Notes under the pieces: generated by a model
Seen by the model: the letters and a program-made list of their open reading frames with translations, nothing else
Databases searched by the model: none
Told to the model about the DNA's origin: nothing
Source of the DNA: Bacteroidales bacterium
GTDB lineage: Bacteria; Bacteroidota; Bacteroidia; Bacteroidales; FEN-979
DNA: 64,000 nt
Assembly (NCBI GenBank): GCA_963682005.1
Contig: OY820914.1
Span: forward strand, 3,908,145 to 3,972,144
Direction of reading: 5' to 3'
Part shown: positions 1,992 through 39,811 of the stretch, in pieces
Numbering within the stretch: the first letter of the stretch is position 1
Layout of the letters: each line of letters begins with the position of its first letter
Program-made: the position numbers and the translations under genes

Positions 1992-2044
1992 AATTAGTTG
2001 ATGAACTGATGAGTTGATGAGCTGACGAACTCAAAAATACTTCT

Positions 2045-11608: not shown

Positions 11609-11639
11609 TTCAGAAGTTGGAGGATGATATGAATGAAGA

Positions 11640-11647
11640 CAAAAGTA
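11640..11647 (-). promoter_or_regulatory. candidate Bacteroidetes -7 box (TActTTTG) for the GT2 operon
   Basis: The minus strand reads TACTTTTG, matching TAnnTTTG. It lies 32 nt upstream of the ATG at 11608, and only a near-match -33 (TTTC) lies 17 nt further upstream. Confidence 0.3.
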
Positions 11648-11678
11648 CGAATTTTCTGCTAATGGAAAGTGAAGAGAA

Positions 11679-11712
11679 GCTGGATGCTGGATGCTGGATG
11701 CTGGATGCTGGA
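11679..11712. repeat. tandem heptamer array GCTGGAT x ~4.9
   Basis: Direct reading: gctggatgctggatgctggatgctggatgctgga. The reverse complement CCAGCATCCAGC occurs at 11786-11797. Confidence 0.9.
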
Positions 11713-11830
11713 GTATAATATTTTGGCAAGTTAACGATATTTGTTTTTGGACACACACAAATCCCAATACCCGAAACACACACAACCAGCATCCAGCTTC
11801 GCCAATTAAGATTATTAGTATTTTTGCCGG

Positions 11831-13171
11831 GTGAAGATCCTCCTGATAAACCCGCCGCGTTCGCCGGAAAACAATATCCTGAAATTCGCCCCGGAGGCGG
11901 CAAAACAATTTATCCATAAGAAACTGATCGGTCCCCCGCTGGGATTGCTCACCATTGCTGCTGCTGTAAAAGATCATGATGTAACAGTCTTTGATTCGAA
12001 AGGGGAGTATGATCTTCATCCGGATGGACCTTCCCTGGAATTACTGGTGAAAGGACTTCTGGAAAAGCACAAACCAGATATCGTCGGAGTGACGATCATC
12101 ACCTCTGAGTTTGATCTTTCGCTTGAGATTTTTCGTGTTGTAAAAGAATATGACCCGGGGATTCTCACGGTAGCCGGGGGATTGCATGCCACACTCTGCC
12201 CGAAGGATTTTGCGGAGACACCCGTGGATGTGACAATCCCCGGCCAGTGCGCCCACATTTTCAGAGAGGTTGTCATTACGGCTGAAAGCAAAAAGGATCT
12301 TGCAATGGTGCCGGGGATTCTTCTTAATACAGATAATGGCTTTACAAAAACAAATGGAACTGCAAGGCCGTTTGATCATTCCGATGCCGGCTTCCTGAAA
12401 ATTGACAGGCGTTTCCTGGATAAGTGGATCGGCACATACAAAGTCGGGAACAGCCCTTTTCCTTCCACGTATGTTTACACTTCCCTGGGTTGTCCTTATA
12501 AATGTACATTCTGCTCGATCTGGACACAGTTTAAAGGAAAATATTATCAGCGTGATGTGGAGAGTCTCATCGAAGAGCTGAAATCGATCGATGAATACCC
12601 GGTTGTGCGGTTTGCAGATGCCAATACAGTGGTTGACTTTGATTTCATGAACCTCCTGTTCGACCGGATCGTTGAGGAAGGGATCAAAAAGACTTTTATC
12701 ATGGATATCCGTGCCGATGTGGTGGTTCAGCAACCTGCGCTCATCGAGAAATTCGCAAAGGCCGGATTGAAAGTCGTGATCTGCGGGTTTGAATCGTTCC
12801 GGGACAGTGAACTGAAAAAATACAATAAGTCATCACCGGCAAGGTATAACCAGGAAGCCATCGGCATCTTTGAGAAGAATGGCATCTTGGTCCGGGGAAA
12901 TTATGTGATACCGAATGATTACACCGCGGATGACTTTAAGGCACTGGCTGACTATTCCGCTGCGAACCCCGTGGTATATGCAGGATATACAATTTTAACA
13001 CCCATGCCGGGAACGGTCTATTATAACCAGGTCAGGCACCAGATCGTGGATCACGATTACCGGAAATACAATTTTTTTAATTCCGTGATGAAGACCGTAA
13101 TCCCGCATGATGAGTTTCATGAAATGGTCGGGGGACTTTGGCTGATCAAGAAAGGGAAAGACGTTATATAA
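11831..13171 (+). CDS. B12-binding domain-containing radical SAM protein (rSAM-2)
   Basis: 446 aa with a GTG start (MKILLINPP). It has a B12-binding-like N-terminus (PDIVGVTII) and CxxxCxxC in SLGCPYKCTFCSIW. Confidence 0.8.
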   Translation: MKILLINPPRSPENNILKFAPEAAKQFIHKKLIGPPLGLLTIAAAVKDHDVTVFDSKGEYDLHPDGPSLELLVKGLLEKHKPDIVGVTIITSEFDLSLEIFRVVKEYDPGILTVAGGLHATLCPKDFAETPVDVTIPGQCAHIFREVVITAESKKDLAMVPGILLNTDNGFTKTNGTARPFDHSDAGFLKIDRRFLDKWIGTYKVGNSPFPSTYVYTSLGCPYKCTFCSIWTQFKGKYYQRDVESLIEELKSIDEYPVVRFADANTVVDFDFMNLLFDRIVEEGIKKTFIMDIRADVVVQQPALIEKFAKAGLKVVICGFESFRDSELKKYNKSSPARYNQEAIGIFEKNGILVRGNYVIPNDYTADDFKALADYSAANPVVYAGYTILTPMPGTVYYNQVRHQIVDHDYRKYNFFNSVMKTVIPHDEFHEMVGGLWLIKKGKDVI

Positions 13172-13172
13172 T

Positions 13173-13205
13173 GAATATTGAACATTGAATATTGAACATT
13201 GAATA
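13173..13205. repeat. tandem array GAATATT/GAACATT (14-nt unit x ~2.3)
   Basis: Direct reading immediately after the TAA stop at 13169-13171. A related ggaatattgaatcttga precedes the next start codon. Confidence 0.85.
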
Positions 13206-13382
13206 GAGAAAATAAAGTCCAATCTGAAAAGCTCTGTTTACCACAAAGGCGCAAACCTGCCTGCTGGCGGGCAGGAACGCTAAAAATGAACTCATTGTAT
13301 CAAATTATTTGCGTCTTGGCGTCTTAGCGGTAAAGTTTTAAAAATCACTTTTCGGAGTAAACGCAACATGGAATATTGAATC

Positions 13383-14810
13383 TTGAAAAGAATTCTCCTG
13401 GTAAATACGAACATTGAAAAGATGCCGTACCCGGTGCCGCCGCTGGGATTGTGTTTACTGGCGTCGAGCCTTGAAAGTGACTATGAGGTAAAGATCTATG
13501 ACGGGGTGTTTGATGAAGGAAGGTCCTTGGTTGATGTTGTTAAAGAATTCAATCCCGATTATATCGGGTTCAGCATCCGGAATGTCGATGATATTGTTGC
13601 AGACCGAAAGGTGTTCTACATCGACAGGATCATCTCTGATTTTATAAACCCTGTAAGGAACTGCACAAATGTCCCGCTGATCATTGGCGGAAGCGGATTC
13701 AGCATGTTCCCGGAGGAGCTGATGGAAATGACGGGAGTAGATTATGGGATAGCGGGAGAGGGGGAGAAACTAATGATGGCTCTGATCTACTCACTCAACC
13801 AGGGGGTGCAGCCTCCAACTAGCCCGCAGATCCTGGTGAAAGGGCAGAAGAATCCGGGAATATCGACAAGTGTTTCCTTCCTCGAACTTTCCGGGATGAA
13901 ATTATCCGAGATCGACCGGCATATCGATTTTACGCCATACAAACAGCGCGGTGCCTATTCAATCCAGACAAAGCGCGGGTGTTCCCACGGGTGCATTTAC
14001 TGCACATACCCTGTTGTTGAAGGTTCCTGCTTCCGGATGCGTGATCCGTATGAGATCGCGTGTGAAATTGAGGCAGCAGCCAAAAGGCTGGGCGATGTGA
14101 TGTTTGAATTCGTGGATTCGACGTTCAACGATCCGAAAGGACATGCGGAAGCGATTTGCAGGGAGATCATAAAAATGAAGCTGAAGGTGAGGCTGCGCAC
14201 CATGGGAATAAACCCGGGGCACAGCAGCAGGGAGCTTTTTCAGTTGATGATCGATGCAGGATTTACCCAGATCGATGCAACCCCCGACAGCGCTTCGCCG
14301 AAAGTGATGAAAAACCTGGGCAAAGGATTCAACCTGGAAGAGACCCGGCGCATGGCTGACCTGATCAGGGAATTCAACCTCCCGACGATGTGGTTCTTTC
14401 TATTCGGCGGGCCGGGAGAGGATGAGGTCACTTTTGCTGAAACACTTGATTTCATTGACCAATTTGTCAACCCGGATGACCTGGTTTATATGACAGCCGG
14501 CCTCCGGATCTATCCACAGACACCCTTATACAATATCGCCTTAAAGGAAGGAAAGATCACTGCAGCGCAGTCGATCCTGAATCCGCCGGCTTATTATTTC
14601 CCCGACCGGTTGCCAAAAGAAAAGCTTGATTCCCTGATTGAAATTGCGGCCCGGACACGGCCAAACTGCCTTCCGGCAAATTCGACCACCCCGCCGGAGG
14701 AGATGAGGAAAGAGGCATTTATCCTGCGCCAGCAGGAAAACCTCACGGAACCTATGTTCAGAACGCTCCTCAGGATCAGGAAACGGTGGATTGCAGAAGG
14801 AAGATTGTGA
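13383..14810 (+). CDS. B12-binding domain-containing radical SAM protein (rSAM-3), paralog of rSAM-5
   Basis: 475 aa with a TTG start. It carries PDYIGFSIRNVDD and QTKRGCSHGCIYCTYP (CxxxCxxC). Its signature is very similar to that of the 40659-42026 product. Confidence 0.8.
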   Translation: MKRILLVNTNIEKMPYPVPPLGLCLLASSLESDYEVKIYDGVFDEGRSLVDVVKEFNPDYIGFSIRNVDDIVADRKVFYIDRIISDFINPVRNCTNVPLIIGGSGFSMFPEELMEMTGVDYGIAGEGEKLMMALIYSLNQGVQPPTSPQILVKGQKNPGISTSVSFLELSGMKLSEIDRHIDFTPYKQRGAYSIQTKRGCSHGCIYCTYPVVEGSCFRMRDPYEIACEIEAAAKRLGDVMFEFVDSTFNDPKGHAEAICREIIKMKLKVRLRTMGINPGHSSRELFQLMIDAGFTQIDATPDSASPKVMKNLGKGFNLEETRRMADLIREFNLPTMWFFLFGGPGEDEVTFAETLDFIDQFVNPDDLVYMTAGLRIYPQTPLYNIALKEGKITAAQSILNPPAYYFPDRLPKEKLDSLIEIAARTRPNCLPANSTTPPEEMRKEAFILRQQENLTEPMFRTLLRIRKRWIAEGRL

Positions 14811-14880: not shown

Positions 14881-15294
14881 TTACAGTTGAACGGTATTCT
14901 TAGGTTGCATGTCGGTCTCAAGACTCCAGATCGTTGCATTGCCATGTACCAGGCGGAAAACCGCCATCAGCTTGAACCCGGTTTGTTCGATCCAGCTCTT
15001 CAGAAATGGCCTTGCCTCAAGGATCTCTTTCTTCAGATCGATGTCTTTATCCAGGTTTTCCACAGTCCCTGATATTCTTACCTGGAAATCATCCTTGTGA
15101 AAACAAAGCTCTACCAAAGGATTCAATGATAACTGCCGGTAAAGGTCCTTGGATTTCGCGGTCATGAAATAGATGCCGGTATCGTCGGCCTTGTGCAGCA
15201 TGAGTGTCCGCACATGAGGGATGTTCCCGTCGGTCGTTGCCAACTGGAAGGAGGGGTTTTCTGTCAGGAATTTTAGTATCTCTTTTTTTGTCAT
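14881..15294 (-). CDS. pyridoxamine 5'-phosphate oxidase-like FMN-binding family protein
   Basis: About 137 aa from MTKKEILKFL. The pattern ...ATTDGNIPHVRTLML...YFMTAKSKDLYRQL..NP.VELCF is typical of the PNPOx-like/general-stress-26 fold. The start is trimmed from the track's 15309. Confidence 0.55.
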   Translation of the reverse strand: MTKKEILKFLTENPSFQLATTDGNIPHVRTLMLHKADDTGIYFMTAKSKDLYRQLSLNPLVELCFHKDDFQVRISGTVENLDKDIDLKKEILEARPFLKSWIEQTGFKLMAVFRLVHGNATIWSLETDMQPKNTVQL

Positions 15295-15373
15295 TTTTCT
15301 ATAGCACACGGATTACGCGGATCAGGCGGATTTACACGGATAAGCTTATAAGCGATAATCCGCAAAATCCGCG

Positions 15374-16288
15374 TTATCCGCGTTCCAATAAGTTAATAAC
15401 CGGGAAGAAGTCGGAATTTCCTTCCACGAATTTAGCATTTTTTGCAAGGTTTCGACAGGGACCGCATTCAATAAATGTTTTTACCCCCGATTCCTGCAGC
15501 TTTAGTTGTGTTTTATACCAGTTCAGCCGGGTATAAAGATTCCTTACGAATTCATGAGCCAGGGCTTCCTTTGTAATGATCATAACCTGGTCAACCAGCG
15601 AAATGATCCTCACGGATGGTTCTTTGATGGCAATGTTTCCTGCGATGAACTTTTCGAATCGTGCGGCCGTTCCGGCTAACAACCGTGAATGGTACGGAAC
15701 CGAAACCCTTAGCATCACCGTATTCAGCGCTCCTTCGTTTTTTGCCGTTTCCATCAGCTCAGAAATCTCCTTATGGTTTCCTGATAGTACGAATGAATAG
15801 GCGCTGTTCTGATTCGTGATCTCAATGGAAGGGAAACTTTTGGAGATCATTTCTTCAAGGTCTGACTGGCTTAATCCAAGGATGGCGGCCATCCCGAACT
15901 TCGTTTCACCGATAATTTCCAGGATTGACGAATAGGCTTCCCTGATAAGCAATAATCCGTCTTCAAAGGAGATCGCACCAGCCTGGAAGGCAGCAGCATA
16001 GATTCCCATGCTGTAACCGGCGCTGTATGCGGGAAAGATGTTCTTTTCCTTCAGTAATTGTGAATAACTGCATCCGAGGATATCGGAAATATACTGGGTT
16101 CGGAGTTCTTCCTCCAGAAAATCATTTGAAGCAGGGTGGAACGATGTCAGTGCCGGATCAACGGTCTTTGCGGCAATGGTAAGAAAGTTACGGAATATCG
16201 CGCCGAAATCCTTGTCACGGCCGAGAAGATCATCCGGATAATCGTTGACGAAGGCAGGAAATATAAAGGCTATGGGTTGTGTAAGCAC
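15374..16288 (-). CDS. ACP S-malonyltransferase (FabD)-like acyltransferase
   Basis: 304 aa with a GxSxG nucleophile elbow (AGYSMGIYAA). It starts with AFIFPAFVN-type residues and has VSVPYHS, as in malonyl-CoA:ACP transacylases. Confidence 0.7.
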   Translation of the reverse strand: MLTQPIAFIFPAFVNDYPDDLLGRDKDFGAIFRNFLTIAAKTVDPALTSFHPASNDFLEEELRTQYISDILGCSYSQLLKEKNIFPAYSAGYSMGIYAAAFQAGAISFEDGLLLIREAYSSILEIIGETKFGMAAILGLSQSDLEEMISKSFPSIEITNQNSAYSFVLSGNHKEISELMETAKNEGALNTVMLRVSVPYHSRLLAGTAARFEKFIAGNIAIKEPSVRIISLVDQVMIITKEALAHEFVRNLYTRLNWYKTQLKLQESGVKTFIECGPCRNLAKNAKFVEGNSDFFPVINLLERG

Positions 16289-16302
16289 CGAACCGTTTAT
16301 GT

Positions 16303-16605
16303 TCAGAGTTCCAGTAATTTATTTTCGTGTTCAATAATGAGCATCTGCATGTCGATCAGTTCGCCGATGGTTTGAACAGGATGCTTGATGGCATACTTGC
16401 CGATCGTTTTCAGTTCAATATCGAGGGTGTATTTTTTCTTGAAGATCTCGATCAGTTCCAGGAACATCAGCGAATCCCCGTCAAGATCCTTGATTATATT
16501 GGACTGATCATTCAATGATGAGAGTTCAACTTCACATTCATCTGCAAAAAATTTATATACGATCTCTTTGACTTCCTGCCGTGTGTTTTCCGTAATTGTA
16601 GCCAT
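16303..16605 (-). CDS. acyl carrier protein
   Basis: 100 aa with the phosphopantetheine attachment motif DLDGDSLMFLELI. Confidence 0.75.
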   Translation of the reverse strand: MATITENTRQEVKEIVYKFFADECEVELSSLNDQSNIIKDLDGDSLMFLELIEIFKKKYTLDIELKTIGKYAIKHPVQTIGELIDMQMLIIEHENKLLEL

Positions 16606-16656
16606 TCCTGATATTTATTTTGGGGTTATCTGATCTGCAAAAATACACTATTTTAT

Positions 16657-16700
16657 TTTTCACTCTTAACTTTTCACTCTTCACTTTTCACTCTTCACTT
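16657..16700. repeat. tandem 14-nt unit TTTTCACTCTTCAC x ~3
   Basis: Direct reading: ttttcactcttaacttttcactcttcacttttcactcttcactt. Confidence 0.85.
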
Positions 16701-16856
16701 GTAATTGGCTTTCAAATCTAAAATCCAAAATGGCAATATCTAAAAATATTCAGGATTTTGGATTTTACCATTTTACCATTTAAAACGGGTCAGCCAAAAA
16801 ATCAACCGCAAAGGCGCCCGAAGGTCGTCACTAAGGCGCTCAAAGGCGCATCTTCT

Positions 16857-16896
16857 CATTTTACATTTTGCATTTTGCATTTTGCATTTTGCATTT
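16857..16896. repeat. tandem heptamer array GCATTTT x ~5.5
   Basis: Direct reading: cattttacattttgcattttgcattttgcattttgcattt. Confidence 0.9.
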
Positions 16897-17407
16897 GATA
16901 TGCCTGTATCCTTCCTGTATGCTTCCTGTATGCAAATTCTGAACAAATCATTCTGAAGGTGCTCAATAGATGATTCTGAAAACCCTAATACTGACTTCAT
17001 TGGCAAACAATTTTCAATCAAATATTTGGGAAAACTAAATGTTAAGCATATGCCTTCGGGCTTACACCTGGAGTTTTTCATTATACATTGGAGGTCAATG
17101 GTAAGTTAAGCGGTGTTAAAAAGATGATTGTGATGGAATGATTTGAATTTACCCTGTTGGATTTTCCCACCCTTTCATCGGGGAATTCATCAGGAAGAAA
17201 ATATAATTACACGCGGAAGAAAATTAATTTCATGCGGGTGTAATTTTCAAAGTAAGTATTGAATAGAATTCCTGCATTTTGCATTATGCACTCCTGCATT
17301 GAAAAGGCCGCCAGCCAGGCTCCGTGACTCTGTGGTAAAAAAAACTCAACACGGAGAACACAGGGAAGGCACAGAGTTCACAGAGGTATTGTACCCAATG
17401 TGTTCTT

Positions 17408-18625
17408 CTAATGATATTTCCTGAAAACCAGCGTGGCATTGTGCCCGCCGAAACCGAAGGAGTTTGACAGGGCAACATTGATTTCTTTGGACCTGGATTG
17501 GTTCGGCACATAATCGAGGTCGAGATCGGGATCGGGATGATCCAGGTTGATGGTGGGCGTGAGGATGCTGTTTTTCATGCTCATGATGGTGATGATGCTT
17601 TCGATCGCCCCTGCAGCGCCGATCGTATGGCCGATCATCGATTTTGATGATGAAACCGGGATGTGGTACGCTTTTTCACCAAATACCCTCTTGATGGCGA
17701 GGGTTTCATAACGGTCGTTGAGTTCTGTGGAGGTGCCGTGCGCATTGATGTAATCGACATCATCGGTCGTGATTCCTGCATTTTTCAGGGCTTTCTCCAT
17801 CGTGAAAGCCATTCCTTCGCCGTCCTTCAGCGGGGCCATGATATTGTATCCCTCGCTGCTGAAGGCATAGCCGGCAATTTCAGCATGGATCTCTGCATTT
17901 CTCCTCTTTGCGGATTCTTCCGATTCCAGGATCAGGATCCCGGCTCCTTCACCGATCACAAAACCGTCGCGGTCGGCGGAGAAGGGCCTGCTTGCTTTTT
18001 CGGGATGATCATTCTGAACGGAAAGGGCATAAAGGGCATTGAACCCGGCGATTTCCTCGGCATTGATGATGGAGTCGGCGCCGCCAACGATTACAATATC
18101 CAGCATACCTGAACGGATCATTTCATAGCCAAGTCCGATCGCATAGGCGGAAGAGGCGCAGGCGGTGTTGACCACGAAATTCGGCCCGAACAGCTGGTAT
18201 TCCAGTGATATCCAGGCCGACATCGAATTGGTCATGCTCTTAAAGATCGTATTCTGAATGGTGGTATCCTTTTCTGAGGTTGAGTTGCCTGTATTGACAA
18301 CCCCAAGGATTACGCCACAACGGGTTTTATCCACTGTTTCAAAATCCAGTCCGCTGTATTTTATTGCATCCCGCGTGCAGGTAAAGCACATTTTCGTGAC
18401 CCTGGTCATCTGGCTTCCGGCGCGTTTCTTAATGTACTGTTTCGAATAGGCCTCGAAATCCGGCGATACTTCACCTGCAATGCGGGTAATGCTGTTTGAA
18501 GCATCAAACAGAGAGATCTGCTTAATTCCGCTTTTCCCCATGACCAGACCTTCCCAATTTGTGGTTAAATCAAGTCCGAGGGAAGAGATGATATTCATTC
18601 CCGTTACTACAACTTTTTGCTGCAT
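17408..18625 (-). CDS. beta-ketoacyl-ACP synthase II-like ketosynthase (KS-E)
   Basis: 405 aa with a full Cys-His-His set: NTACASSAYAIG, NAHGTSTELND, SMIGHTIGAAG. The C-terminus NSFGFGGHNATLVF is typical. Confidence 0.9.
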   Translation of the reverse strand: MQQKVVVTGMNIISSLGLDLTTNWEGLVMGKSGIKQISLFDASNSITRIAGEVSPDFEAYSKQYIKKRAGSQMTRVTKMCFTCTRDAIKYSGLDFETVDKTRCGVILGVVNTGNSTSEKDTTIQNTIFKSMTNSMSAWISLEYQLFGPNFVVNTACASSAYAIGLGYEMIRSGMLDIVIVGGADSIINAEEIAGFNALYALSVQNDHPEKASRPFSADRDGFVIGEGAGILILESEESAKRRNAEIHAEIAGYAFSSEGYNIMAPLKDGEGMAFTMEKALKNAGITTDDVDYINAHGTSTELNDRYETLAIKRVFGEKAYHIPVSSSKSMIGHTIGAAGAIESIITIMSMKNSILTPTINLDHPDPDLDLDYVPNQSRSKEINVALSNSFGFGGHNATLVFRKYH

Positions 18626-18656
18626 AGGTTTTGGGACAGATAAAGGTTTGCGCTCT

Positions 18657-19049
18657 CTATTTCTTTTTCAGGGAATTTGCCCAGTTGCCGATGGTGACAA
18701 CCTGTGCCGGTGTCAATACGGCATCCGGATGGCTTTCCTTGAACTTCTTAGGCGGCATTTTACCACCGTTGACCATTTTAAACATGGAAGCAGCCTTGGA
18801 AGCCTGCTTAGCCGCATCATACGTTTCCCACTTCGTGAAATTAACATGGGATGCTGCCATTCCGTTCCCGCCTGTTGAATGACAGGTAAAGCATGAATTC
18901 TGAACGATCTTGTTTATACTATCAGGTAAAGCAATCCCTTTGGCGGGATCATTTTTTGTCTGACTGATTGCTTTCCCTGGCATCAACACCAACACCACAG
19001 CCATTGAGATCAACGCAACAACTGCAACTAATGCGTACTTCTTTTTCAT
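18657..19049 (-). CDS. secreted heme-binding (c-type, CxxCH) domain protein
   Basis: 130 aa with a signal peptide (MKKKYALVAVVALISMAVVLV) and a single CFTCH motif followed by ...MPPKKF, as in small haem-binding domain proteins. Confidence 0.6.
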   Translation of the reverse strand: MKKKYALVAVVALISMAVVLVLMPGKAISQTKNDPAKGIALPDSINKIVQNSCFTCHSTGGNGMAASHVNFTKWETYDAAKQASKAASMFKMVNGGKMPPKKFKESHPDAVLTPAQVVTIGNWANSLKKK

Positions 19050-19180
19050 ACTTTTTCTGATGATTAGTCTTCCTAAAAAATTATAGATTGCAAAAATACA
19101 AAATCTGGTAGGAAAGAAAAAGTCTATTCCTACTTTGATGTGCTTGAAAAAGAAAGAACTTTATAATGATCTGCTTAGCA

Positions 19181-19243
19181 TACCCACCCCTCAAATCCCC
19201 TCCCTACCATTAGGGAGGGGAAGACCGAAGGTCGGGGTGGGTA
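19181..19243. repeat. compound REP-like palindromic element
   Basis: The outer stem TACCCACCCC/GGGGTGGGTA encloses the hairpins CCCCTCCC-N8-GGGAGGGG and GACC-gaa-GGTC. The motif GAAGGTCGGGGT is shared with the RAYT right flank at 48028-48039. Confidence 0.7.
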
Positions 19244-19266
19244 CGATGGGGCCAAGGCATGCCTTT

Positions 19267-20313
19267 TCAGGAAACAATATCCAGCGGACCATTGTCAATG
19301 CCAAAATACTCCCTGATCGCATCGTTTAGGTCCTGGATGTTGCATTTGGATTGGGCTGCGAACCTTTTTACGGCGGAGATGTAGGTAAAGGAAAGCCGTT
19401 TCCTGATCTCTTCATCGACCGGGTCATTATCAAGGACGCGACCCCGTTCGGATGTCCCCTGCTCGGGCGGATAAGAAAAAAATCCTTCTGAAGCTTTCAT
19501 CCCTGTTTTTCCTTCCGAGACCATCTTTTCGAGATGATGGATCAGCGGCAGATAATAATCCTTGTGCGGATAGGTGCGGACATAGTTTTTAACCGAAGCG
19601 AGCATGATATCGATACCGACGCTGTCCATGAATTCAAATGCGCCGGTCGGGAAAAAATACTTCCTCACAATACGGTCCATCTCCCGGAACGAATGGTTTT
19701 CCTGTGTTGCGATGAGGAAGGCTTCATTCTGGAAATCCAGGAAGATCCGGTTCAGGATGTGCCCGTCCTTTTCGTTTAAGATCATGTATTTCCGGTTTAT
19801 CGCCTGAAGGAATTTCTCAACTGTCTCCTGTGTTTGCCAGGAGGTATCATCGGTAACGATGAATTCGACGATATTTTTCAGCGCGACCGGATAGAAAAAA
19901 TGAAGGCCGATAAAACTCCGTTTCCGGATACAGGCAGGAAGCAGTTCACAGGGATTTACCGATGAAGAGCTGGTGGCGAGGATGGTACTGACCGGTACGA
20001 TGGGATCGATCGCCTTGAAAAGCCTGCGTTTCAGACTTGCGTTTTCGAATATTGTCTCGATGATTAGTTCACAAGTAGCCAGTTCAGCAATGTCTTTTGT
20101 AATTGTGACCTCTTTCTGAAGCGTTTCAAACCTCGACTGGCTGACCAGGTTATTGTCCAGTGAACGTTTGATCTTTTTCAGAAAAGTTTTACGGATCTTG
20201 TCAATATCAGCCTCCTGGCTGCAGATCCATACCAGGGTGAAATCAAAATCCAAAAGGTAATAAAACAGGTTGGTACCCATTTTGCCTTCGCCGATTATTC
20301 CTATGTTCTTCAT
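19267..20313 (-). CDS. 3-hydroxyacyl-CoA dehydrogenase family protein
   Basis: Rossmann motif IGIIGEGKMGTNLF with a 3HCDH-like core (HFFYPVALKNIVE). The start is trimmed to MKNIGIIG (20313) because the track's first 7 codons lie in a heptamer repeat. Confidence 0.65.
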   Translation of the reverse strand: MKNIGIIGEGKMGTNLFYYLLDFDFTLVWICSQEADIDKIRKTFLKKIKRSLDNNLVSQSRFETLQKEVTITKDIAELATCELIIETIFENASLKRRLFKAIDPIVPVSTILATSSSSVNPCELLPACIRKRSFIGLHFFYPVALKNIVEFIVTDDTSWQTQETVEKFLQAINRKYMILNEKDGHILNRIFLDFQNEAFLIATQENHSFREMDRIVRKYFFPTGAFEFMDSVGIDIMLASVKNYVRTYPHKDYYLPLIHHLEKMVSEGKTGMKASEGFFSYPPEQGTSERGRVLDNDPVDEEIRKRLSFTYISAVKRFAAQSKCNIQDLNDAIREYFGIDNGPLDIVS

Positions 20314-20319
20314 GTTATC

Positions 20320-20389
20320 AAATCCAAAATCCAAAATCTAAAGTCTAAAATCTAAAGTCAAAAGTCAAAAGTCAAAAGTTAAAAGTCAA
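20320..20389. repeat. tandem heptamer array AAAATCC/AAAGTCA family x ~10
   Basis: Direct reading: aaatccaaaatccaaaatctaaagtctaaaatctaaagtcaaaagtcaaaagtcaaaagttaaaagtcaa. Confidence 0.9.
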
Positions 20390-20400
20390 CTAAACTTATT

Positions 20401-20430
20401 ATCCCGCATCCCGCATCGCGCATCCCGCAT
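20401..20430. repeat. tandem heptamer array CCCGCAT x ~4
   Basis: Reads atcccgcatcccgcatcgcgcatcccgcat and abuts the stop codon of rSAM-4 (20431). The same unit occurs at 51665-51699. Confidence 0.9.
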
Positions 20431-21975
20431 CTAGGTTCCAGCATCCCTCAACGGTCCCTCATCATGTTCTTTTACGATCTCGCGGTATTTCTCCATATTC
20501 TTTTTATGGTCGAGAATATGACGGTGATAGCCGAGCATGGAGAGCATGAAACCAAGTCCTTTGTCGATGGCGATCTTCTTTTCACGGATCAGTCCGAAGA
20601 TGAACCGGAACAATTTTCTTCGTTCGGGATCGGATGATATTACAAACTCTTTGAACGTGATCCACGATAATCTCGCTTTAAGAAATAGAGAAATATCTCC
20701 TCCTTTGCGTGTGAAAGCCCCGCTGCTGAAAAGTTGTTCGGCTTTAGGCCTTATGTTTTTGAAATCATAGAAACGTGCGATCGTTTCCATGTATTTTTCA
20801 AAGATATCAACCTGTGAAAGATTCTTGTAATGAACCGTCGGGAAATGGCCGACACCCAATTCGGGGTCACAATGCAGCAACCTGCCTTCGTCCTTCAGTC
20901 TTTTATGAAGTTCTGTCCCCGGCGGGGCGGCAAGCAGATGCAGGTTGACATTCGACAGGTCCATTTTCATTGTGAAGTCGAAGATATCGTCAAAAGCCTG
21001 GAGTTTATCATGATCAAAACCAACAACGAATGAGGCATTGATATGGATCCCGGCTGCGTGGATCTTCCGGATGGCGGGTTCGTAGATCGTCGCTTCCTTG
21101 TTATGAAGCTTATTGCTTTCACCAAGGCTTTCGGGGTTCAGCGATTCAAAACCGATGAGGATGTTGAAGCAGCCGGCATCGGCCATGAGTTCCAGCAATT
21201 CCTCATCATTGGCCACATCCAGGCTGCTCATGCAACCCCAGGAAATATTGAGGGGCTTGATGGCCTTCATAAGTTCCTTCGCGTATTTCTTGTTGATGGT
21301 CAGGTTATCATCGACAAAGAAAAAATAGGAGGATGGTGCTGCTTTTATCTCTTCCACCACATTTTCAATGGTGCGGTAGCGCATTTTTCTTCCGAAGATC
21401 TTTGAAACAAGGCAGAAATCGCAGTTGAACGGGCATCCCCTCGAAACCTGGATACCAACCTGGAAGATTTTTTTCATGCTGACAAGGTCCCAGCGGGGCG
21501 GTTTCTGGCTTTTGTACGGTACAGCAATATCAGACCTGTAAACGGGCTTCATATTTCCCTGTTCAAAATCCGAAAGGCATTCTTCCCACAATCCTTCCGC
21601 TTCTCCAACCACCACTGCATCGGCGTGCTTAAGTGATTCTTCCGTTGTGAACGAAGCGTATGGTCCGCCCAGGACGACTTTGACACCTTTTGACCGGTAA
21701 TGATCCGAAAGCTCGTAGGCCCGCGTTATCGTCGCAGCGAGGGTTGTGATCCCGATGATATCCGGTATTTCATTGGCAGGAAGATCCTCAATTTCTTCGT
21801 CAAAGATCTTGATATCGTAATGATCAGGCGTAAGGGAAGCGATGGTTGGGAGCGCCAAAGGGATCATCAGCCGCTTCTTCCCGAACATCTTCGCCAGCTC
21901 ATTGTGGGCCGGGTAGTTGATGTACTTCTGTTTCGGACTGATCAGGAACAGGCTGTATCTCTTTCTGTTAATCAC
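20431..21975 (-). CDS. B12-binding domain-containing radical SAM protein (rSAM-4)
   Basis: 514 aa. It has a B12-binding-like N-terminus (PDIIGITTL...VVLGGPY) and CxxxCxxC in SRGCPFNCDFCLVS. Confidence 0.8.
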   Translation of the reverse strand: MINRKRYSLFLISPKQKYINYPAHNELAKMFGKKRLMIPLALPTIASLTPDHYDIKIFDEEIEDLPANEIPDIIGITTLAATITRAYELSDHYRSKGVKVVLGGPYASFTTEESLKHADAVVVGEAEGLWEECLSDFEQGNMKPVYRSDIAVPYKSQKPPRWDLVSMKKIFQVGIQVSRGCPFNCDFCLVSKIFGRKMRYRTIENVVEEIKAAPSSYFFFVDDNLTINKKYAKELMKAIKPLNISWGCMSSLDVANDEELLELMADAGCFNILIGFESLNPESLGESNKLHNKEATIYEPAIRKIHAAGIHINASFVVGFDHDKLQAFDDIFDFTMKMDLSNVNLHLLAAPPGTELHKRLKDEGRLLHCDPELGVGHFPTVHYKNLSQVDIFEKYMETIARFYDFKNIRPKAEQLFSSGAFTRKGGDISLFLKARLSWITFKEFVISSDPERRKLFRFIFGLIREKKIAIDKGLGFMLSMLGYHRHILDHKKNMEKYREIVKEHDEGPLRDAGT

Positions 21976-21982
21976 CTTCTTT

Positions 21983-22010
21983 AATTACGAATTACGGATT
22001 ACGAATTACG
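21983..22010. repeat. tandem heptamer array AATTACG x 4
   Basis: Reads aattacgaattacggattacgaattacg, 8 nt upstream of the rSAM-4 start. A TTYTCAT x5 array follows at 22021-22055. Confidence 0.9.
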
Positions 22011-22044
22011 AAAGTTTAATTTTTCATTTTTCATTCTTCATTCC

Positions 22045-23196
22045 TCATTCTTCATTGTAAATTATCGAATAGCCTGCCTGCATGAACTTGCTGACTTCAG
22101 TCACAAAACTCAGTATAAGGTCACCATTGTTGAGTTTTTCTTCCTTCCTGATCTTATCTAAGCACAGGAAAGCCATTGGCGGACCGATGTAGCCCATCGT
22201 CGACATTTTTGTATAGAGCGTATTCCTTGAGATGCCAAGTGTTTCGCACTCATCCATCACAAGTTCAGTGATATGCTTTGAGGGAAAGTTAACCTGGAAG
22301 AAGCGGAGCGATGAAAGATCGATCTGGTATTTCGCGATCATCCGCTGTAATCCTTTCAGAAATACAGATCCGTCCGGTTCGTGAAAATTAGCACGAAGTT
22401 CCTCCTGGAACATCTGGGCAAGGTGATGATAGCCTTTCTCAAATTCCTCTTTCGGGTTCATCCAGTAGGAGGGCCGCCTGTTTCCCATGGCTGAGGGCTT
22501 TTTCCCCCCGATGGATTCGGTATAGACATGGTCAATAAAAAGACCGGTCCTGTCATTGTCTTCTGCTTTCAATACCAGCGCAGCGGCCCCGTCGCTTAAA
22601 AAATAGCGAAGGAAAAGTTCTTCTTTCTTTATTAAAGGCTGGTTGTAATATTCCGCCACAAGTTCAGACGAAGACATATTGGAGGAAATGACAAGTGCAT
22701 TTTTATACCGGCCGTTCCTGACCAGGTCATGGGCGAGAAGAAGCGCTTTGTAAGCTGAGGTGCAATTGGCATGAATGGAAAACTCCCCACATTGTTCAAT
22801 CCCAAGTTTCTCCTGGATCCGTACGGAAGCTGTAGGCATCTGGTCCTGGTGGGCGCTGCCGTAAACGATAAGCTCGACTTCATCCGGCTTCATTTGTGCA
22901 TCATCCAGCGCTTTCAGTGCTGCCTTTACCGACATACTCACATTGTCTTCGGTGAACTGCCTTGTAACAGGATCGATTGCAAAATGATAATATTCCACAT
23001 CCAGCATTTCTTTCATCAAAGGCCGTATGCGCTGTTCCCAGTTCCTGATCTTCAATGGCGCATCCTTCACCTCGCCTAAGTAATCATAGAGGTTTTCCAA
23101 CGGAATGGCCGACCCGGGAAGGTAGGTTCCGGTACCCGCCAGCCTGATGAATATCCTGTTATCAATTGTGTTTTTCGTGTTCACCTTATCCCGCAA
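22045..23196 (-). CDS. thiolase-fold KAS III (FabH)-like condensing enzyme
   Basis: 383 aa. It has a FabH-like N-terminus (LAGTGTYLPGSAIPLENL) and a candidate nucleophile in HANCTSAYKALLLA. Assignment within the thiolase superfamily (FabH, DarB or type III PKS-like) cannot be made by eye. Confidence 0.6.
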   Translation of the reverse strand: MRDKVNTKNTIDNRIFIRLAGTGTYLPGSAIPLENLYDYLGEVKDAPLKIRNWEQRIRPLMKEMLDVEYYHFAIDPVTRQFTEDNVSMSVKAALKALDDAQMKPDEVELIVYGSAHQDQMPTASVRIQEKLGIEQCGEFSIHANCTSAYKALLLAHDLVRNGRYKNALVISSNMSSSELVAEYYNQPLIKKEELFLRYFLSDGAAALVLKAEDNDRTGLFIDHVYTESIGGKKPSAMGNRRPSYWMNPKEEFEKGYHHLAQMFQEELRANFHEPDGSVFLKGLQRMIAKYQIDLSSLRFFQVNFPSKHITELVMDECETLGISRNTLYTKMSTMGYIGPPMAFLCLDKIRKEEKLNNGDLILSFVTEVSKFMQAGYSIIYNEE

Positions 23197-23863
23197 GTTG
23201 TTTCAGATACAATTTTGATTTTTCCTTTATATATCCGGATGAGATCTTCTGTATAAATCCAACGGCGGATTCCACTATTTGTTTCTTTGGAACAATTCGG
23301 TCAACCAGTCCGTATTCAAATGCATCTGATGCAGGAAAAGCATTTCCTCTCAATACCATCTCCATTGCCCGGGCTTTTCCGCAGGTTTTTGATGCCCTGG
23401 AGATCCCGCCGATCCCTGGTATCAGGTTATAGGTTGTTTCAGGGAGGGCAAAAACGGAATCTTCCCCGCAAAACCTGAAATGACTGAAAAGTGCCAGTTC
23501 CAGGGCCGATCCGAGGCAAACCCCGCGGATAGCCGAAATGACCGGTATTTCAAGTGCTTCCATGGAAAGAAAGGTATGATAATTTTTATCCAGGAATGCG
23601 GCAAGTTCCACCTGTTTTCCCGATGAATCAACCTGGGATTCATTTTTTACCAGGGATAGCAGTTGCGACAAATCAGCCCCGGCTGAAAAATGCCTTCCCT
23701 GGCCGCTGATCACAAGCCCCCTGAGATCCTTCATCTTTTGGATCTTCTCCATTATCTGGCCAAACTCGGAAAAGAACTCAAGTGTCATCTTATTCGATGG
23801 CGGTTGATCAAGGACAAGACTTCCTATATTGTTTGTTATAGAGAAAGAGATCGTGTTATACAA
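23186..23863 (-). CDS. enoyl-CoA hydratase/isomerase (crotonase) family protein
   Basis: 225 aa with the crotonase oxyanion motif ISGQGRHFSAGADL and AIRGVCLGSALELAL. Confidence 0.75.
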   Translation of the reverse strand: MYNTISFSITNNIGSLVLDQPPSNKMTLEFFSEFGQIMEKIQKMKDLRGLVISGQGRHFSAGADLSQLLSLVKNESQVDSSGKQVELAAFLDKNYHTFLSMEALEIPVISAIRGVCLGSALELALFSHFRFCGEDSVFALPETTYNLIPGIGGISRASKTCGKARAMEMVLRGNAFPASDAFEYGLVDRIVPKKQIVESAVGFIQKISSGYIKEKSKLYLKQLAG

Positions 23864-23871
23864 TGAACTTT

Positions 23872-23899
23872 AATTATGAATTATGAGTTTGAATTATGA
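23872..23899. repeat. AATTATG-family tandem repeat
   Basis: Reads aattatgaattatgagtttgaattatga. A near-identical string occurs at 51607-51641 and a shorter copy near 43403. Confidence 0.85.
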
Positions 23900-23956
23900 T
23901 TCCAATGGTTTTATTACTCTGTCACACCATTACCCTTATCGCCTTGTAACCCCTGA

Positions 23957-24712
23957 CTAATGTACCCCCCTGGATTTCGCTTCAATTGACGCAAGCTCGC
24001 AAAACATCCGGGTTTCTTCCTTCATCGATTCTGAGAACGAGATTTTACGGGCGTTTGAGAAAGCCTGCATGACACAGTGTATCACTTTATGCAATTTCCC
24101 ATCGGTCATTTTATTCAGCAGAGAGGTGGAGTATTCCATTAAACCATCACTTGCGACAATGTGGTCAATGATCTTCATTTCCAGCGCTTCTTTTGCATCG
24201 ATCATATCACCTTCCATCACCATCTTCATTGAATTCAAAAGGGATGTTCTTTCCATGATCCTGACCGTACCTCCCAGCCCCGGGATCAGTCCCCAGTTTG
24301 ACTCTGGAAAGGCAAACAATGCATTGTGGCTGCAGATCCTGATGTGACAGGCGAGGGCGATCTCAAGTCCGGCGCCGAAACAAATTCCTTTAATAACTGC
24401 AAAAACGGGAATGTCGATATTTTCAAGATAATCGAGTAGTTCTTTCCCCCGGCTCATCATCCTGAACATCTCCTCATGATCAAGTGCCATAGAAAAAAGC
24501 CCGTCCAGGTTTGCACCTCCTGAAAAATGGCGCCCGGTTCCTGTTATGATCAACCCTTTCAATTCTTCCTTTTCCTTCCAGTTCCTGAGGACGTCAACAG
24601 AAATAAATTCGGGACCTGTGAGGTAATTTTCCGGAGGATTGTCGAGTATAACAGTTCCGATCGAGTTGTTTACCTCCAGCTTTATATTCTTTAATGGTTC
24701 AGTCATGGACAT
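23957..24712 (-). CDS. enoyl-CoA hydratase/isomerase (crotonase) family protein
   Basis: 251 aa with ITGTGRHFSGGANL and VIKGICFGAGLEIALACH. Confidence 0.75.
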   Translation of the reverse strand: MSMTEPLKNIKLEVNNSIGTVILDNPPENYLTGPEFISVDVLRNWKEKEELKGLIITGTGRHFSGGANLDGLFSMALDHEEMFRMMSRGKELLDYLENIDIPVFAVIKGICFGAGLEIALACHIRICSHNALFAFPESNWGLIPGLGGTVRIMERTSLLNSMKMVMEGDMIDAKEALEMKIIDHIVASDGLMEYSTSLLNKMTDGKLHKVIHCVMQAFSNARKISFSESMKEETRMFCELASIEAKSRGVH

Positions 24713-24715
24713 GTT

Positions 24716-25102
24716 TTATTCTGAAGGAAAAAGAAACCCGGGTAGATCCATTGGTGATTTATTTCTGTCGATCAGCAGGGTTTTTATGGTCGCCCTTGCA
24801 TTTGCAAGGCCAGTTGCTGTATTTCTGATCTTGTGATGGAAGACCAGGAAGGGTTCTTTCTTTTCATAACTTGTTTCTACCACCAGTTCTTCCAGAAGGC
24901 AGGACTCACGCATATACCGGATGGTTGTCTCAATCACAACAAGCATCCAGCCATTCTCCCTGAAATGATCAAGGATGCCGAGGTTCTGCATCACTTCCCA
25001 TCTTGCCTGTTCAAGATACTGAAGGTAAACGGCGTTATTGACATGCCCGTATGAATCGAGCTCATAGCCCCTGACTTGCAACCTGGTCTCAAATTTTCTC
25101 AT
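24716..25102 (-). CDS. 4HBT/YbgC-type acyl-CoA (acyl-ACP) thioesterase
   Basis: 128 aa with a hotdog thioesterase signature: VRGYELDSYGHVNNAVYLQYLEQAR. Confidence 0.7.
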   Translation of the reverse strand: MRKFETRLQVRGYELDSYGHVNNAVYLQYLEQARWEVMQNLGILDHFRENGWMLVVIETTIRYMRESCLLEELVVETSYEKKEPFLVFHHKIRNTATGLANARATIKTLLIDRNKSPMDLPGFLFPSE

Positions 25103-25533
25103 CGGAAAATACCTTTGAATTTGATAAACACCAGGTCACCTTTGGAGATCGTAGCTGAAACGTCCCATTGGTCCACAGTTTTCATTTTTATGGTCAGCTT
25201 CACATTAACATCAGGATTTGCCTTCGGGCTGATCATGTTCAGGAACTTGATGTTGTCCGAGGATGCCAGGGTGATATCTTTTTCCACGATACCGCTGACA
25301 AGCTCCTTAATGATCTCAACCTGGCAAACGCCTGGAACAACAGGGTTTCCCGGGAAATGGCCTTCAAATACAGGATGATCACGGTTCAGCCCGATCGAAA
25401 ATGAATATTCCGATATAGGAGGAAATCCAATTCCCCCAGTTTCCCTTACAGGTGAAGCAAAACGTATCTTATAAAAGTTATCCTTTAGCAATAGGTTCCT
25501 GATGAAAAAGAGAATGAAAAAGTCAGGGTGCAA
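25099..25533 (-). CDS. FabZ/FabA-like hotdog 3-hydroxyacyl-ACP dehydratase
   Basis: Catalytic-region motif HPVFEGHFPGNPVVPGVCQVE. The true start may be the TTG at 25491 (LKDNFYKI). Confidence 0.7.
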   Translation of the reverse strand: MHPDFFILFFIRNLLLKDNFYKIRFASPVRETGGIGFPPISEYSFSIGLNRDHPVFEGHFPGNPVVPGVCQVEIIKELVSGIVEKDITLASSDNIKFLNMISPKANPDVNVKLTIKMKTVDQWDVSATISKGDLVFIKFKGIFR

Positions 25534-38228: not shown

Positions 38229-38243
38229 TCGTTATACATTTTA

Positions 38244-38645
38244 TTAATCTACAATTTTTAACTGGTCAACAGTAATATTAAAAGCTTCGGCATATTTCTG
38301 GAGGGTCTTCTCATTCAACCGGTTGAAGACACCAGGTTTAAAATGTCGTTTCACCCTCCAAAGTCCAATCCCGGAAATAATGGAAAGGTTCAATGGGTCC
38401 AGCAGGTTCTTTTCCATGTAATAAACGATCGGGCTGGCCGTTCCGCTCTTGACTTTTTGCCGGGCTTCTTCCGCGCGTTCCTTAAAATGGTCCCATGCCT
38501 GTTGCAGGACGACTCTGTCAGCTTCACCGTGAAAACCTACGCTTTGTTCATAATCGCCCTTTTCAGCGTATGAATAGAACAATTCACGGTACTGTCCGAA
38601 GTTTTGGTCTTTATAAACAGGGTTATCTTTGTTATCCATAGACAT
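38244..38645 (-). CDS. small conserved protein with possible C-terminal HTH, copy 1
   Basis: 133 aa. It is a paralog of the 39812-40225 product, sharing RELFYS...SP..YYMEK.L....L....G...WRVKRH.KP.VF..L. Confidence 0.5.
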   Translation of the reverse strand: MSMDNKDNPVYKDQNFGQYRELFYSYAEKGDYEQSVGFHGEADRVVLQQAWDHFKERAEEARQKVKSGTASPIVYYMEKNLLDPLNLSIISGIGLWRVKRHFKPGVFNRLNEKTLQKYAEAFNITVDQLKIVD

Positions 38646-38787
38646 TCCTATATAATTAGATTTATGATATTATTGAAATCTTTTGCGAAAGTAATGAAAA
38701 AAGTGTTAGGGTTTGCAGAAGCTTTCTGGTTCCGGAATACCAGGAAGAGCAACATTCTCCAGCTGTCATTATCATACATTGCAATAA

Positions 38788-39789: not shown

Positions 39790-39811
39790 TTATGCCTTTC
39801 TTTTTCCAGAG

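Follow-up and report, generated by a model that had tools for sequence, protein, structure and literature searches.

A six-gene module around a StlD/DarB-related condensing enzyme as a possible replacement for DarA/DarB in flexirubin-type clusters of Bacteroidales

The 64,000-nucleotide stretch of contig OY820914.1, from an anaerobic Bacteroidales bacterium of an uncultured type, analyzed here (positions 3,908,145 to 3,972,144; referred to as the window) carries, within a flexirubin/aryl-polyene-type gene cluster, a block of biosynthetic genes around a ketoacyl synthase III (KAS III)-like condensing enzyme, here designated KAS3. The conserved part of the block is a unit of six genes encoding a thioesterase of the 4HBT family, two crotonases, KAS3, a 3-hydroxyacyl-CoA dehydrogenase family protein (3HCDH), and a FabF-like ketosynthase (KS), and it is narrower than the block delimited in an earlier sequence-only reading of the same DNA. 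The module is a new, widespread, and uncharacterized variant of the DarB/StlD kind of system, and it probably makes the fatty, hydroxyl-bearing partner of the pigment without a DarA/DarB pair. With slightly less than even confidence, we propose that it is a self-sufficient head-to-head condensation/cyclization module that replaces DarA/DarB in the cluster. No description of such a module was found by full-text search of the literature.

Conservation was assessed in 41 related loci of at least 20 kb. The genes for the thioesterase, the two crotonases, and KAS3 were present in the same order in all 41 loci, the 3HCDH gene in 40, and the FabF gene in 38, an arrangement well outside what chance would produce. 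A dedicated acyl carrier protein (ACP) gene, designated ACP2, and an acyltransferase gene occurred together in 31 loci, the B12-binding radical S-adenosylmethionine (SAM) gene neighboring KAS3 (the 20431-21975 type) in 26, and two divergent radical-SAM genes in 23 and 17, respectively. The ACP2/acyltransferase genes were accompanied by radical-SAM genes in 28 of the 41 loci, and 8 loci had neither. The real unit is the six-gene core, to which the ACP, acyltransferase, and radical-SAM genes are a frequent add-on, and it is mobile between contexts. Since the core is both kept and mobile, it does not represent housekeeping fatty-acid or butyrate metabolism. The outcome that the sequence-only reading had named as refuting it, a block of ordinary metabolism with no conservation next to the polyketide synthase (PKS) core, was thus not borne out: the block is conserved there. 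A scan of a genome collection gave 80 loci, with matches from up to 80 species-level genomes. The hosts are nearly all metagenome-assembled genomes of uncultured Bacteroidales, Prolixibacteraceae, Draconibacterium, Lentimicrobiaceae, or Marinilabiliales, and their source habitats are anoxic (sediments, peat, digesters, and lake water).

The features of the block and its surroundings, based on the listing of open reading frames (ORFs) and on Pfam/NCBIfam scans, are as follows (window coordinates):

37212 to 40225, minus strand: two tandem DarG-DarH pairs (DarH being a BtrH-related acyltransferase), NF053550 and NF053536 above cutoff
25099 to 25533, minus strand: FabA/ApeI-like dehydratase (PF07977, 29 bits; PF22818, 27.5 bits)
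24716 to 25102, minus strand: YbgC/FadM-like thioesterase (4HBT_2), with which the conserved module begins (PF13279, 64 bits)
23957 to 24712, minus strand: crotonase A, ECH_1 family, motif GTGRHFSGGANL (PF00378, 122.6 bits)
23186 to 23863, minus strand: crotonase B, ECH_1 family, motif GQGRHFSAGADL (PF00378, 129.3 bits, profile positions 3 to 192 of 251)
22045 to 23196, minus strand: KAS3, a KAS III-like, StlD/DarB-like thiolase-fold enzyme of the "Cys-x-Tyr" sister clade, motif HANCTSAYKAL
20431 to 21975, minus strand: B12-binding radical-SAM protein, HpnJ/BchE/AprD4-like, no equivalog
19267 to 20334, minus strand: NAD-type 3HCDH family protein, 3HCDH_N/3HCDH (PF02737, 124 bits; PF00725, 64 bits)
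18657 to 19049, minus strand: secreted single-heme Haem_bd protein with a signal peptide and the motif CFTCH, accessory (PF14376, 61 bits)
17408 to 18625, minus strand: FabF-like elongating KS with an intact Cys-His-His set (TIGR03150, 467.6 bits)
16606 to 17407: low-complexity spacer of 802 bp between the FabF and ACP2 genes
16303 to 16605, minus strand: dedicated ACP (ACP2), DSL motif (PF00550)
15374 to 16288, minus strand: FabD/MdcH-like malonyl-type acyltransferase (TIGR03131, 148 bits; TIGR00128, 133 bits; both below cutoff)
14881 to 15309, minus strand: PNPOx-like flavin mononucleotide protein (PNPOx_N), a rarely conserved accessory (PF01243, 51.6 bits)
11831 to 14810, plus strand: two further B12-binding radical-SAM genes covarying with the ACP2/acyltransferase genes

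Judged by its sequence, KAS3 is neither a FabH nor a hydroxymethylglutaryl-CoA synthase (HMGS) nor a true DarB, and belongs to a sister clade of StlD/DarB. It scored 76 bits against the FabH model TIGR00747 (cutoff, 292) and 36.8 and 28.7 bits against the HMGS models NF003274 (cutoff, 244) and TIGR01835 (cutoff, 360), in agreement with the sequence-only reading, which had found its motif to be neither clearly FabH nor HMGS. With the StlD/DarB model NF005293 it reached 115.6 bits, below the family threshold of 450, whereas the canonical DarB of a related locus, L089, reached 483.8 bits; the score with the DarB model NF053539 was 89.3 bits (cutoff, 550). Among the sequences of the PDB, StlD was the best and the sole full-length match of KAS3 (single-sequence E value, 2e-16). 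The profile of the clade matched StlD with 151 bits (E value, 3e-43), AbyA1 with 131 bits, and FabH with ~110 bits, followed by PqsD, MxnB/CorB, and OleA (~66 bits), and there was no HMGS or type III PKS among the 60 best PDB profile matches. The AlphaFold model of KAS3 (pLDDT, 90.6) has a predicted StlD-like fold: the top six Foldseek matches were StlD chains (TM scores, 0.83 to 0.87; E values of about 1e-33), followed by AbyA1. By every measure used here, KAS3 is closest to condensing enzymes that form rings and do not elongate.

A neighbor-joining tree of 65 full-length representatives together with StlD and FabH, constructed without support values, placed KAS3 in a monophyletic Cys-x-Tyr clade that is sister to the Cys-His-Asn clade of StlD/DarB. 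About 1200 database relatives of KAS3 were found at an E value of ≤1e-5, the best 120 being 72 to 100% identical to it, and an exhaustive search of 1.84 billion representatives gave only 34 matches with an E value of <1e-30.

The catalytic cysteine is kept in KAS3 (Cys141, in HANCTSAYK) and aligns with Cys126 of StlD. However, the Cys-His-Asn triad of StlD (Cys126, His302, and Asn337) is not preserved: His302 is replaced by Asn (FQVNFPS) and Asn337 by Tyr (MGYIGPP), and Ser340 is replaced by Pro. The His-to-Asn and Asn-to-Tyr replacements are invariant in 83 orthologues, and the Gly-Tyr pair holds across the whole clade. The phmmer, hmmsearch, and MAFFT alignments, for which an Escherichia coli FabH sequence served as an anchor, agree on these changes, and the identity of StlD His302 was fixed by the pair of entries 5gk0 and 5gk2, which differ in one residue, the latter being titled "H302A." StlD Glu154, which has been proposed as the base, aligns with a variable Asn in the KAS3 clade. 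The clade has an invariant polar set of its own, consisting of Glu134, Asn140, Lys146, Arg193, Asp198, His253, His254, Gln257, Tyr332, Glu363, Ser365, and Lys366. Mori and coworkers reportedly found His302 of StlD to be dispensable for cyclohexanedione formation, and given this result, the loss of the His in KAS3 would be compatible with cyclohexanedione chemistry.

An enzyme that has lost the His-Asn pair and retained the Cys could also be a Cys-only acyltransferase of the CerJ/ChlB6 kind, forming an ester or shuttling an acyl group with no C-C bond made, and flexirubins are indeed esters. However, CerJ and DpsC are absent among the sequence and fold matches listed, where StlD, AbyA1, CorB, and MxnB are present. 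In addition, the cluster already has two DarH acyltransferases, and this explanation leaves the strict coupling of KAS3 to two crotonases, a dehydrogenase, and FabF unaccounted for. We therefore find it improbable.

The same residues bear on the possibility that KAS3 primes the dedicated ACP in a module for a starter or alkyl chain, in which the dehydrogenase and the crotonases turn the chain into a short or branched acyl or enoyl starter and FabF elongates it, as in type II PKS initiation modules of the R1128 type. A KAS III-like enzyme with an ACP, an acyltransferase, and a KS is a known layout of initiation modules; the presence of the ACP2/acyltransferase pair in most of the loci fits it, and the B12-binding radical-SAM enzymes, if methylases, could add the branches. 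Nevertheless, decarboxylative Claisen condensation requires a His and an Asn, both of which are invariantly replaced in KAS3, an enoyl reductase is missing from the module, the nearest relatives of KAS3 are non-elongating ring formers, and eight loci have the core without the ACP/acyltransferase genes. Such a role is unlikely, although somewhat less so than that of an acyltransferase.

The surroundings of the module are those of a pigment cluster from which DarA and DarB are missing. The cluster spans 47 kb on the minus strand, from ~47090 to at least 535 of the window. The flexirubin cutoffs of NCBIfam were exceeded by LolA2 (NF053544, 216.7 bits; cutoff, 125), LolB2 (NF053540, 102.5 bits; cutoff, 60), both DarH proteins (NF053550, 399.7 and 418.4 bits; cutoff, 300), and both members of the DarG family (NF053536, 126.9 and 119.1 bits; cutoff, 70). 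Since LolA2, LolB2, DarG, and DarH all score above curated cutoffs, the cluster is of the flexirubin/aryl-polyene type and not a generic type II PKS cluster. A tyrosine ammonia-lyase (TAL; PF00221, 543 bits) and pairs of KS and chain length factor (CLF) genes are also present. In L089, the canonical order is DarA-DarB-DarG-DarH-ABC, and the order darA-darB-darD-darE is given for Azoarcus in the gene-order description of PMC3949708. In the window, the first DarG gene is preceded by a FabZ gene and a radical-SAM gene, and the DarA-DarB slot is empty. No second DarB-like gene was detected in the window or in 82 loci, so that KAS3 is the sole DarB-related gene. Neither the window nor any of 88 loci gave a tblastn match with an E value below 3 to the protein at the DarA position of L089; because this protein has no Pfam or NCBIfam model, the absence of DarA rests on tblastn with one inferred sequence, covering 64 kb in the case of the window. 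The sequence-only reading had likewise recognized no DarA and had proposed a route different from DarAB. As there is neither a DarA nor a second DarB-like gene and KAS3 falls outside DarB, such a route is the best reading, and the proposal was right in spirit.

The partner enzymes of KAS3 appear to be catalytically intact. Both crotonases retain both hydratase glutamates in at least 97% of their orthologues (67 for crotonase A and 75 for crotonase B). The motifs G.GlEiaL and AfPE of crotonase A are at least 97% conserved among these orthologues, and the motifs Elal and lPE of crotonase B are also conserved. The best PDB matches of the crotonases are ordinary enoyl-CoA hydratases. Crotonase B is the shorter of the two (225 amino acids), its C-terminal helices being truncated. 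In the dehydrogenase, the GxGxxG motif of the NAD fold and the His motif G.HfF.P are conserved. FabF has conserved AC.SS, AHGT, and GHT motifs, and the N-terminal motif of the thioesterase, ElDS..HvNn, is conserved together with its Asp. The CoA-level chemistry named in the sequence-only reading is uncertain: for some of the module at least, ACP-bound chemistry is indicated by the dedicated ACP, the malonyl-type acyltransferase, FabF, and, in relatives, phosphopantetheinyl transferases (PPTases) of the AcpS type encoded within the module or next to it.

The two-Glu sites speak against a polyketide beta-branching cassette, with which the sequence-only reading had compared the block. In such a cassette, HMGS and the crotonases ECH1 and ECH2 would place a branch on the polyene or the alkyl chain, and the block does have a thiolase-fold enzyme adjoining two different crotonases and an ACP. 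However, ECH2 of beta-branching cassettes is of the decarboxylase type and lacks the hydratase glutamates. Since classification of the crotonases gave a two-Glu hydratase site in both and a decarboxylase site of the ECH2 type in neither, a cassette of this kind is unlikely; the HMGS scores far below the cutoffs and the lack of HMGS among the PDB profile matches reduce it to the least probable of the explanations considered, and the analogy was abandoned.

A catabolic alternative is beta-oxidative shortening, in which p-coumaroyl-CoA derived from the TAL product would be hydrated by a crotonase, oxidized by the dehydrogenase, and cleaved by the thiolase-fold enzyme, after which the 4HBT thioesterase would release 4-hydroxybenzoate as a starter of the aryl polyene. 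A crotonase, a 3HCDH, a thiolase-fold enzyme, and a member of the 4-hydroxybenzoyl-CoA thioesterase family form the classical beta-oxidative set, and TAL is encoded in the same cluster. The window showed no gene for a CoA ligase. Against shortening, 18 of the 41 loci carry the module with no TAL or aryl-polyene genes within 10 kb, the module travels with an elongating FabF and usually with an ACP, acyltransferase, or AcpS gene, and KAS3 is StlD-like and not a Cys-His-Cys thiolase. Crotonase A reached only 99.7 bits with the hydroxycinnamoyl-CoA hydratase-lyase model (cutoff, 276) and is nearer to ordinary hydratases. Shortening thus appears to have little chance of being correct. The module resembles FadAB and the butyrate enzymes Hbd-Crt in its crotonase and 3HCDH families and their intact catalytic residues. 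Unlike these, it is embedded in, and inherited together with, a biosynthetic cluster and with FabF, ACP, acyltransferase, and PPTase genes, and neither the region from 14881 to 25533 nor the conserved module of the related loci has a Cys-His-Cys thiolase, an acyl-CoA dehydrogenase, or an enoyl reductase.

Contexts other than that of the window are informative about the product. When all ORFs of these loci were clustered de novo, further neighbors emerged, including a COMT-type O-methyltransferase by the module in 17 loci and a different B12-binding radical-SAM gene upstream of the thioesterase in 13. In seven loci (L021, L026, L033, L034, L037, L042 [11122-13698], and L046), the radical-SAM enzyme and the dehydrogenase form a single ORF of 858 amino acids, and such a fusion, a Rosetta-stone link, points to joint action of the two enzymes. 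A stand-alone version with unrelated flanks, present in eight or more loci, has the order thioesterase-crotonase-AcpS-crotonase-KAS3-outer-membrane barrel-dehydrogenase-FabF next to the O-methyltransferase gene. In L020, L025, L028, L029, L039, L041, L047, and L048, the O-methyltransferase gene is divergently transcribed, the AcpS-like gene lies between the crotonase genes, and a predicted outer-membrane beta-barrel protein is encoded after KAS3; no ACP, acyltransferase, radical-SAM, or polyene genes were found within 10 kb of the stand-alone copies. More distant relatives have the orders KS-ACP-AcpS-KAS3-crotonase...acyltransferase...radical SAM (39% identity) and crotonase-KAS3-radical SAM-dehydrogenase-FabF-UDPGT-flavodoxin_5 followed by sugar-nucleotide genes (42% identity; L085, 6568-12285). 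The flavodoxin_5 protein of L085 is HemG-like, and the neighbors in this locus hint that the product is glycosylated and that an anaerobic dehydrogenase may be present. The tailoring neighbors, namely, the O-methyltransferase, UDPGT with the sugar-nucleotide genes, and the DarH acyltransferase, have hydroxyls as their common target, in line with a product that is phenolic or enolic.

The proposed function follows from a comparison with the known route. StlD/DarB joins a 3-oxoacyl and a 2-enoyl thioester to a carboxy-cyclohexanedione, which is aromatized by DarA/StlC, according to the account of these enzymes in PMC6836626. For its enoyl partner, Photorhabdus StlD borrows a KS, a ketoreductase (KR), and a dehydratase (DH) from type II fatty acid synthesis, and none of them is encoded near stlCDE, as a preprint describes (bioRxiv 10.1101/2022.10.20.513026). 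The module encodes a trio of the KS/KR/DH type (FabF, 3HCDH, and crotonase) and a releasing thioesterase and is usually accompanied by ACP, acyltransferase, and PPTase genes, which is why we propose a cyclization module that is self-sufficient.

The data show which genes are present and their strict synteny, the clade, predicted fold, and active-site replacements of KAS3, and the lack of DarA/DarB in the regions searched; we infer the substrates, the ring chemistry, and the roles of each crotonase and of the radical-SAM enzyme as follows. FabF, with ACP2 and the acyltransferase, would extend a fatty-acyl primer to a 3-oxoacyl thioester, and the dehydrogenase and one crotonase would interconvert the 3-oxo, 3-hydroxy, and 2-enoyl forms. 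KAS3, with one partner loaded on Cys141, would join two thioester chains nondecarboxylatively into a six-membered ring, which might be a cyclohexanedione, a resorcinol/resorcylate, or a pyrone. The second crotonase would dehydrate or aromatize a ring intermediate that is a beta-hydroxy-thioester, and the 4HBT thioesterase would release the product. Candidates for aromatization are the second crotonase, acting on an aldol-type intermediate derived from two 3-oxoacyl units; the pair of radical-SAM enzyme and dehydrogenase; and the CrtI-like protein encoded directly beside the module in L031, L052, and L059. In the window, the hydroxyl of the product would be esterified with the TAL-derived aryl polyene by DarG/DarH, and in other contexts the hydroxylated product would be O-methylated or glycosylated.

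Several points weigh against this proposal. CoA thioesters of catabolic pathways are the usual substrates of the crotonase, 3HCDH, and 4HBT families, and every function assigned to members of the KAS3 clade is itself a prediction. KAS3 scores below the cutoff of the StlD/DarB family, and because His302, Asn337, Ser340, and Glu154 of StlD are missing, its chemistry may differ from that of DarB. Conversion of a carboxy-cyclohexanedione into a resorcinol needs a two-electron oxidation, and no conserved aromatase was identified. The stand-alone copies include an AcpS-like gene yet lack their own ACP. The search for DarA, finally, used a single inferred sequence and, around the module, the 64 kb of the window.

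The need for an oxidation would be met differently if the module were an oxygen-independent route to resorcinol-type lipid rings in anaerobic Bacteroidales, operating via a crotonase or a B12-binding radical-SAM enzyme. KAS3 could join two 3-oxoacyl thioesters by aldol and Claisen reactions, and dehydration by the crotonase could aromatize the ring; because the crotonase would dehydrate a beta-hydroxy-thioester intermediate, no oxidation of the DarA type would be needed. Alternatively, the radical-SAM enzyme, which the seven loci above have fused to the dehydrogenase, could carry out an anaerobic dehydrogenation. This more specific version is doubtful at present.

Among known systems, StlD/DarB with StlC/DarA, which make dialkylresorcinols, bacterial stilbenes, flexirubin, arcuflavin, and bartolosides, are the nearest by hidden Markov model, profile, tree, and predicted fold. 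As in dar clusters, the condensing enzyme lies in a flexirubin-type setting with DarG/DarH, an ABC transporter, ACP, and KS, and it shares the catalytic Cys. Unlike StlD/DarB, KAS3 forms a distinct, below-cutoff clade with replaced His302, Asn337, and Ser340 positions and invariant residues of its own, and unlike dar and stl loci, the module has no DarA/StlC and obligatorily includes the two crotonases, 3HCDH, FabF, and the 4HBT thioesterase. AbyA1-type enzymes (tetronate) and CorB/MxnB (pyrone), the second-best and later matches, likewise do not elongate and form a ring from two thioester-bound chains. However, their similarity to KAS3 is lower (TM scores, 0.72 to 0.76), they work with other partners (the glyceryl-ACP pathway and PKS/nonribosomal peptide synthetase lines, respectively), and the hallmarks of their clusters are absent here. 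DpgA with DpgB/DpgD, in which a thiolase-fold enzyme and two crotonase-family proteins produce an aromatic 1,3-diol ring with no oxidase, offers a functional analogy only. Unlike KAS3, DpgA belongs to the type III PKSs and carries a Cys-His-Asn triad. The crotonases of the module scored 83 to 97 bits with the DpgD model (cutoff, 400), and homology was evident only at the level of the superfamily. The glycosylation and acylation contexts of the module parallel the bartolosides and flexirubin as these are outlined in PMC6836626. The same review (Nat Prod Rep 2019, PMC6836626) mentions cyanobacterial "DarA-less" DarB homologues that are more distant than the characterized DarB/StlD enzymes and have unknown products. 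KAS3 is like them in being a DarB relative with no adjacent aromatase; the passages on these homologues in PMC6836626 describe them phylogenetically only and report neither a crotonase/3HCDH/FabF module nor a replacement of the active site.

All genes named in the sequence-only reading were recovered on the minus strand with the same positions and families, and the FabF-ACP gap of 802 bp was exact; the two crotonase motifs had been quoted in the reverse of their order of transcription. The reported overlap of 11 nt between the KAS3 and crotonase B genes holds for a TTG start (383-amino-acid ORF), to which an exact look-up gave no match, but not for the database copy (P0001), in which a GTG start four codons later (gene 22045-23184) leaves a spacer of 1 nt. 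The GTG at 23184 is the probable start. Since the genes overlap by 4 nt in a relative (L002), the tight coupling of crotonase B and KAS3 is real with either start. The gap between the FabF and ACP2 genes contains six short tandem-repeat arrays (periods of 7 to 21) and an ORF of 102 amino acids with no family match. The corresponding junction in L002 measures 42 nt, which makes the spacer an insertion or expansion specific to this genome. Scans of the block for promoters and terminators stayed at background.

Three genes that had been counted with the block do not belong to the conserved core. The ApeI-like dehydratase, previously described as FabZ-like and as a member of the block, occurred in 16 of the 41 loci, solely in close relatives where KS/CLF and LolA genes adjoin, and is part of the aryl-polyene core rather than of the module. 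The PNPOx-like protein (4 of 41 loci) and the heme protein (14 of 41, every one in a window-like arrangement) had been regarded as candidate oxidizing or aromatizing partners; at these frequencies, neither is in the core, and this role was not upheld.

In downstream order, the 5' part of the cluster encodes TAL, KR, KS, an LpxL-type acyltransferase, a TIGR04072 B12-binding radical-SAM protein, and FabZ. These are followed by the two tandem DarG-DarH pairs, an ABC transporter, a thioesterase, KS, ACP, and two KS/CLF pairs and then by a polysaccharide deacetylase, LolA2, LolB2, the block described here, and the two divergent radical-SAM genes. The tail consists of genes for a GT2-DUF2062 protein, an MMPL-acyltransferase-methyltransferase fusion, a CrtI-like oxidoreductase, a C45 acyltransferase, a fifth radical-SAM protein, and a second 3HCDH. 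A tRNA gene (48313-48386; 60 bits) lies in a noncoding stretch of ~1.9 kb that forms the upstream edge of the cluster beyond TAL; it was the only match of the Rfam scan, which revealed no riboswitch.

The DarG-DarH pairs, which the sequence-only reading had missed, are the likely users of the product of the module. Canonical loci have a single pair after DarA-DarB, and the duplication in the window may reflect two acylations or two acceptors. The five B12-binding radical-SAM genes of the cluster are located at 2045-3352, 11831-13171, 13383-14810, 20431-21975, and 40659-42026. The last of these is the sole one that reaches an equivalog cutoff (TIGR04072, "lipid biosynthesis B12-binding/radical SAM," 423.8 bits), a family first noted beside ladderane-type genes. 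In the fusion protein of 1283 amino acids (6529-10380), which is kept in relatives (L002), an MMPL/HpnN-like RND transporter is joined to a PlsC-type acyltransferase and a SAM-methyltransferase domain. At the far end of the cluster (535-1500 and 1605-6532), there are a second, more canonical 3-hydroxybutyryl-CoA-dehydrogenase-like gene, a C45 autoproteolytic acyltransferase, the CrtI-like flavin adenine dinucleotide oxidoreductase, and an unknown protein of 128 amino acids. In L031, L052, L053, and L059, the genes for the unknown protein, the adjacent radical-SAM protein, and the C45 protein lie directly upstream of the thioesterase-crotonase-crotonase-KAS3 genes; the CrtI-like gene accompanies this set in L031, L052, and L059 but not in L053.

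The present understanding of flexirubin and dialkylresorcinol biosynthesis comes from DarA/DarB alone. In the loci studied here, an entire lineage of clusters, mostly from uncultured Bacteroidales, has DarG/DarH and polyene machinery without DarAB and carries a fixed six-gene module instead. To judge from the stand-alone copies that include an O-methyltransferase, the module may also produce free lipids of a phenolic type. Identification of the product would establish a new branch of ring formers with a thiolase fold and would explain how the alcohol half of flexirubin-like pigments is made in anaerobes. It would also give a handle on the many co-clustered B12-binding radical-SAM enzymes, including the natural fusion with the dehydrogenase. 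If the oxygen-independent route is true, a thiolase/crotonase pair would perform a new enzyme chemistry, and anoxic habitats would harbor a new family of pigments and lipids.

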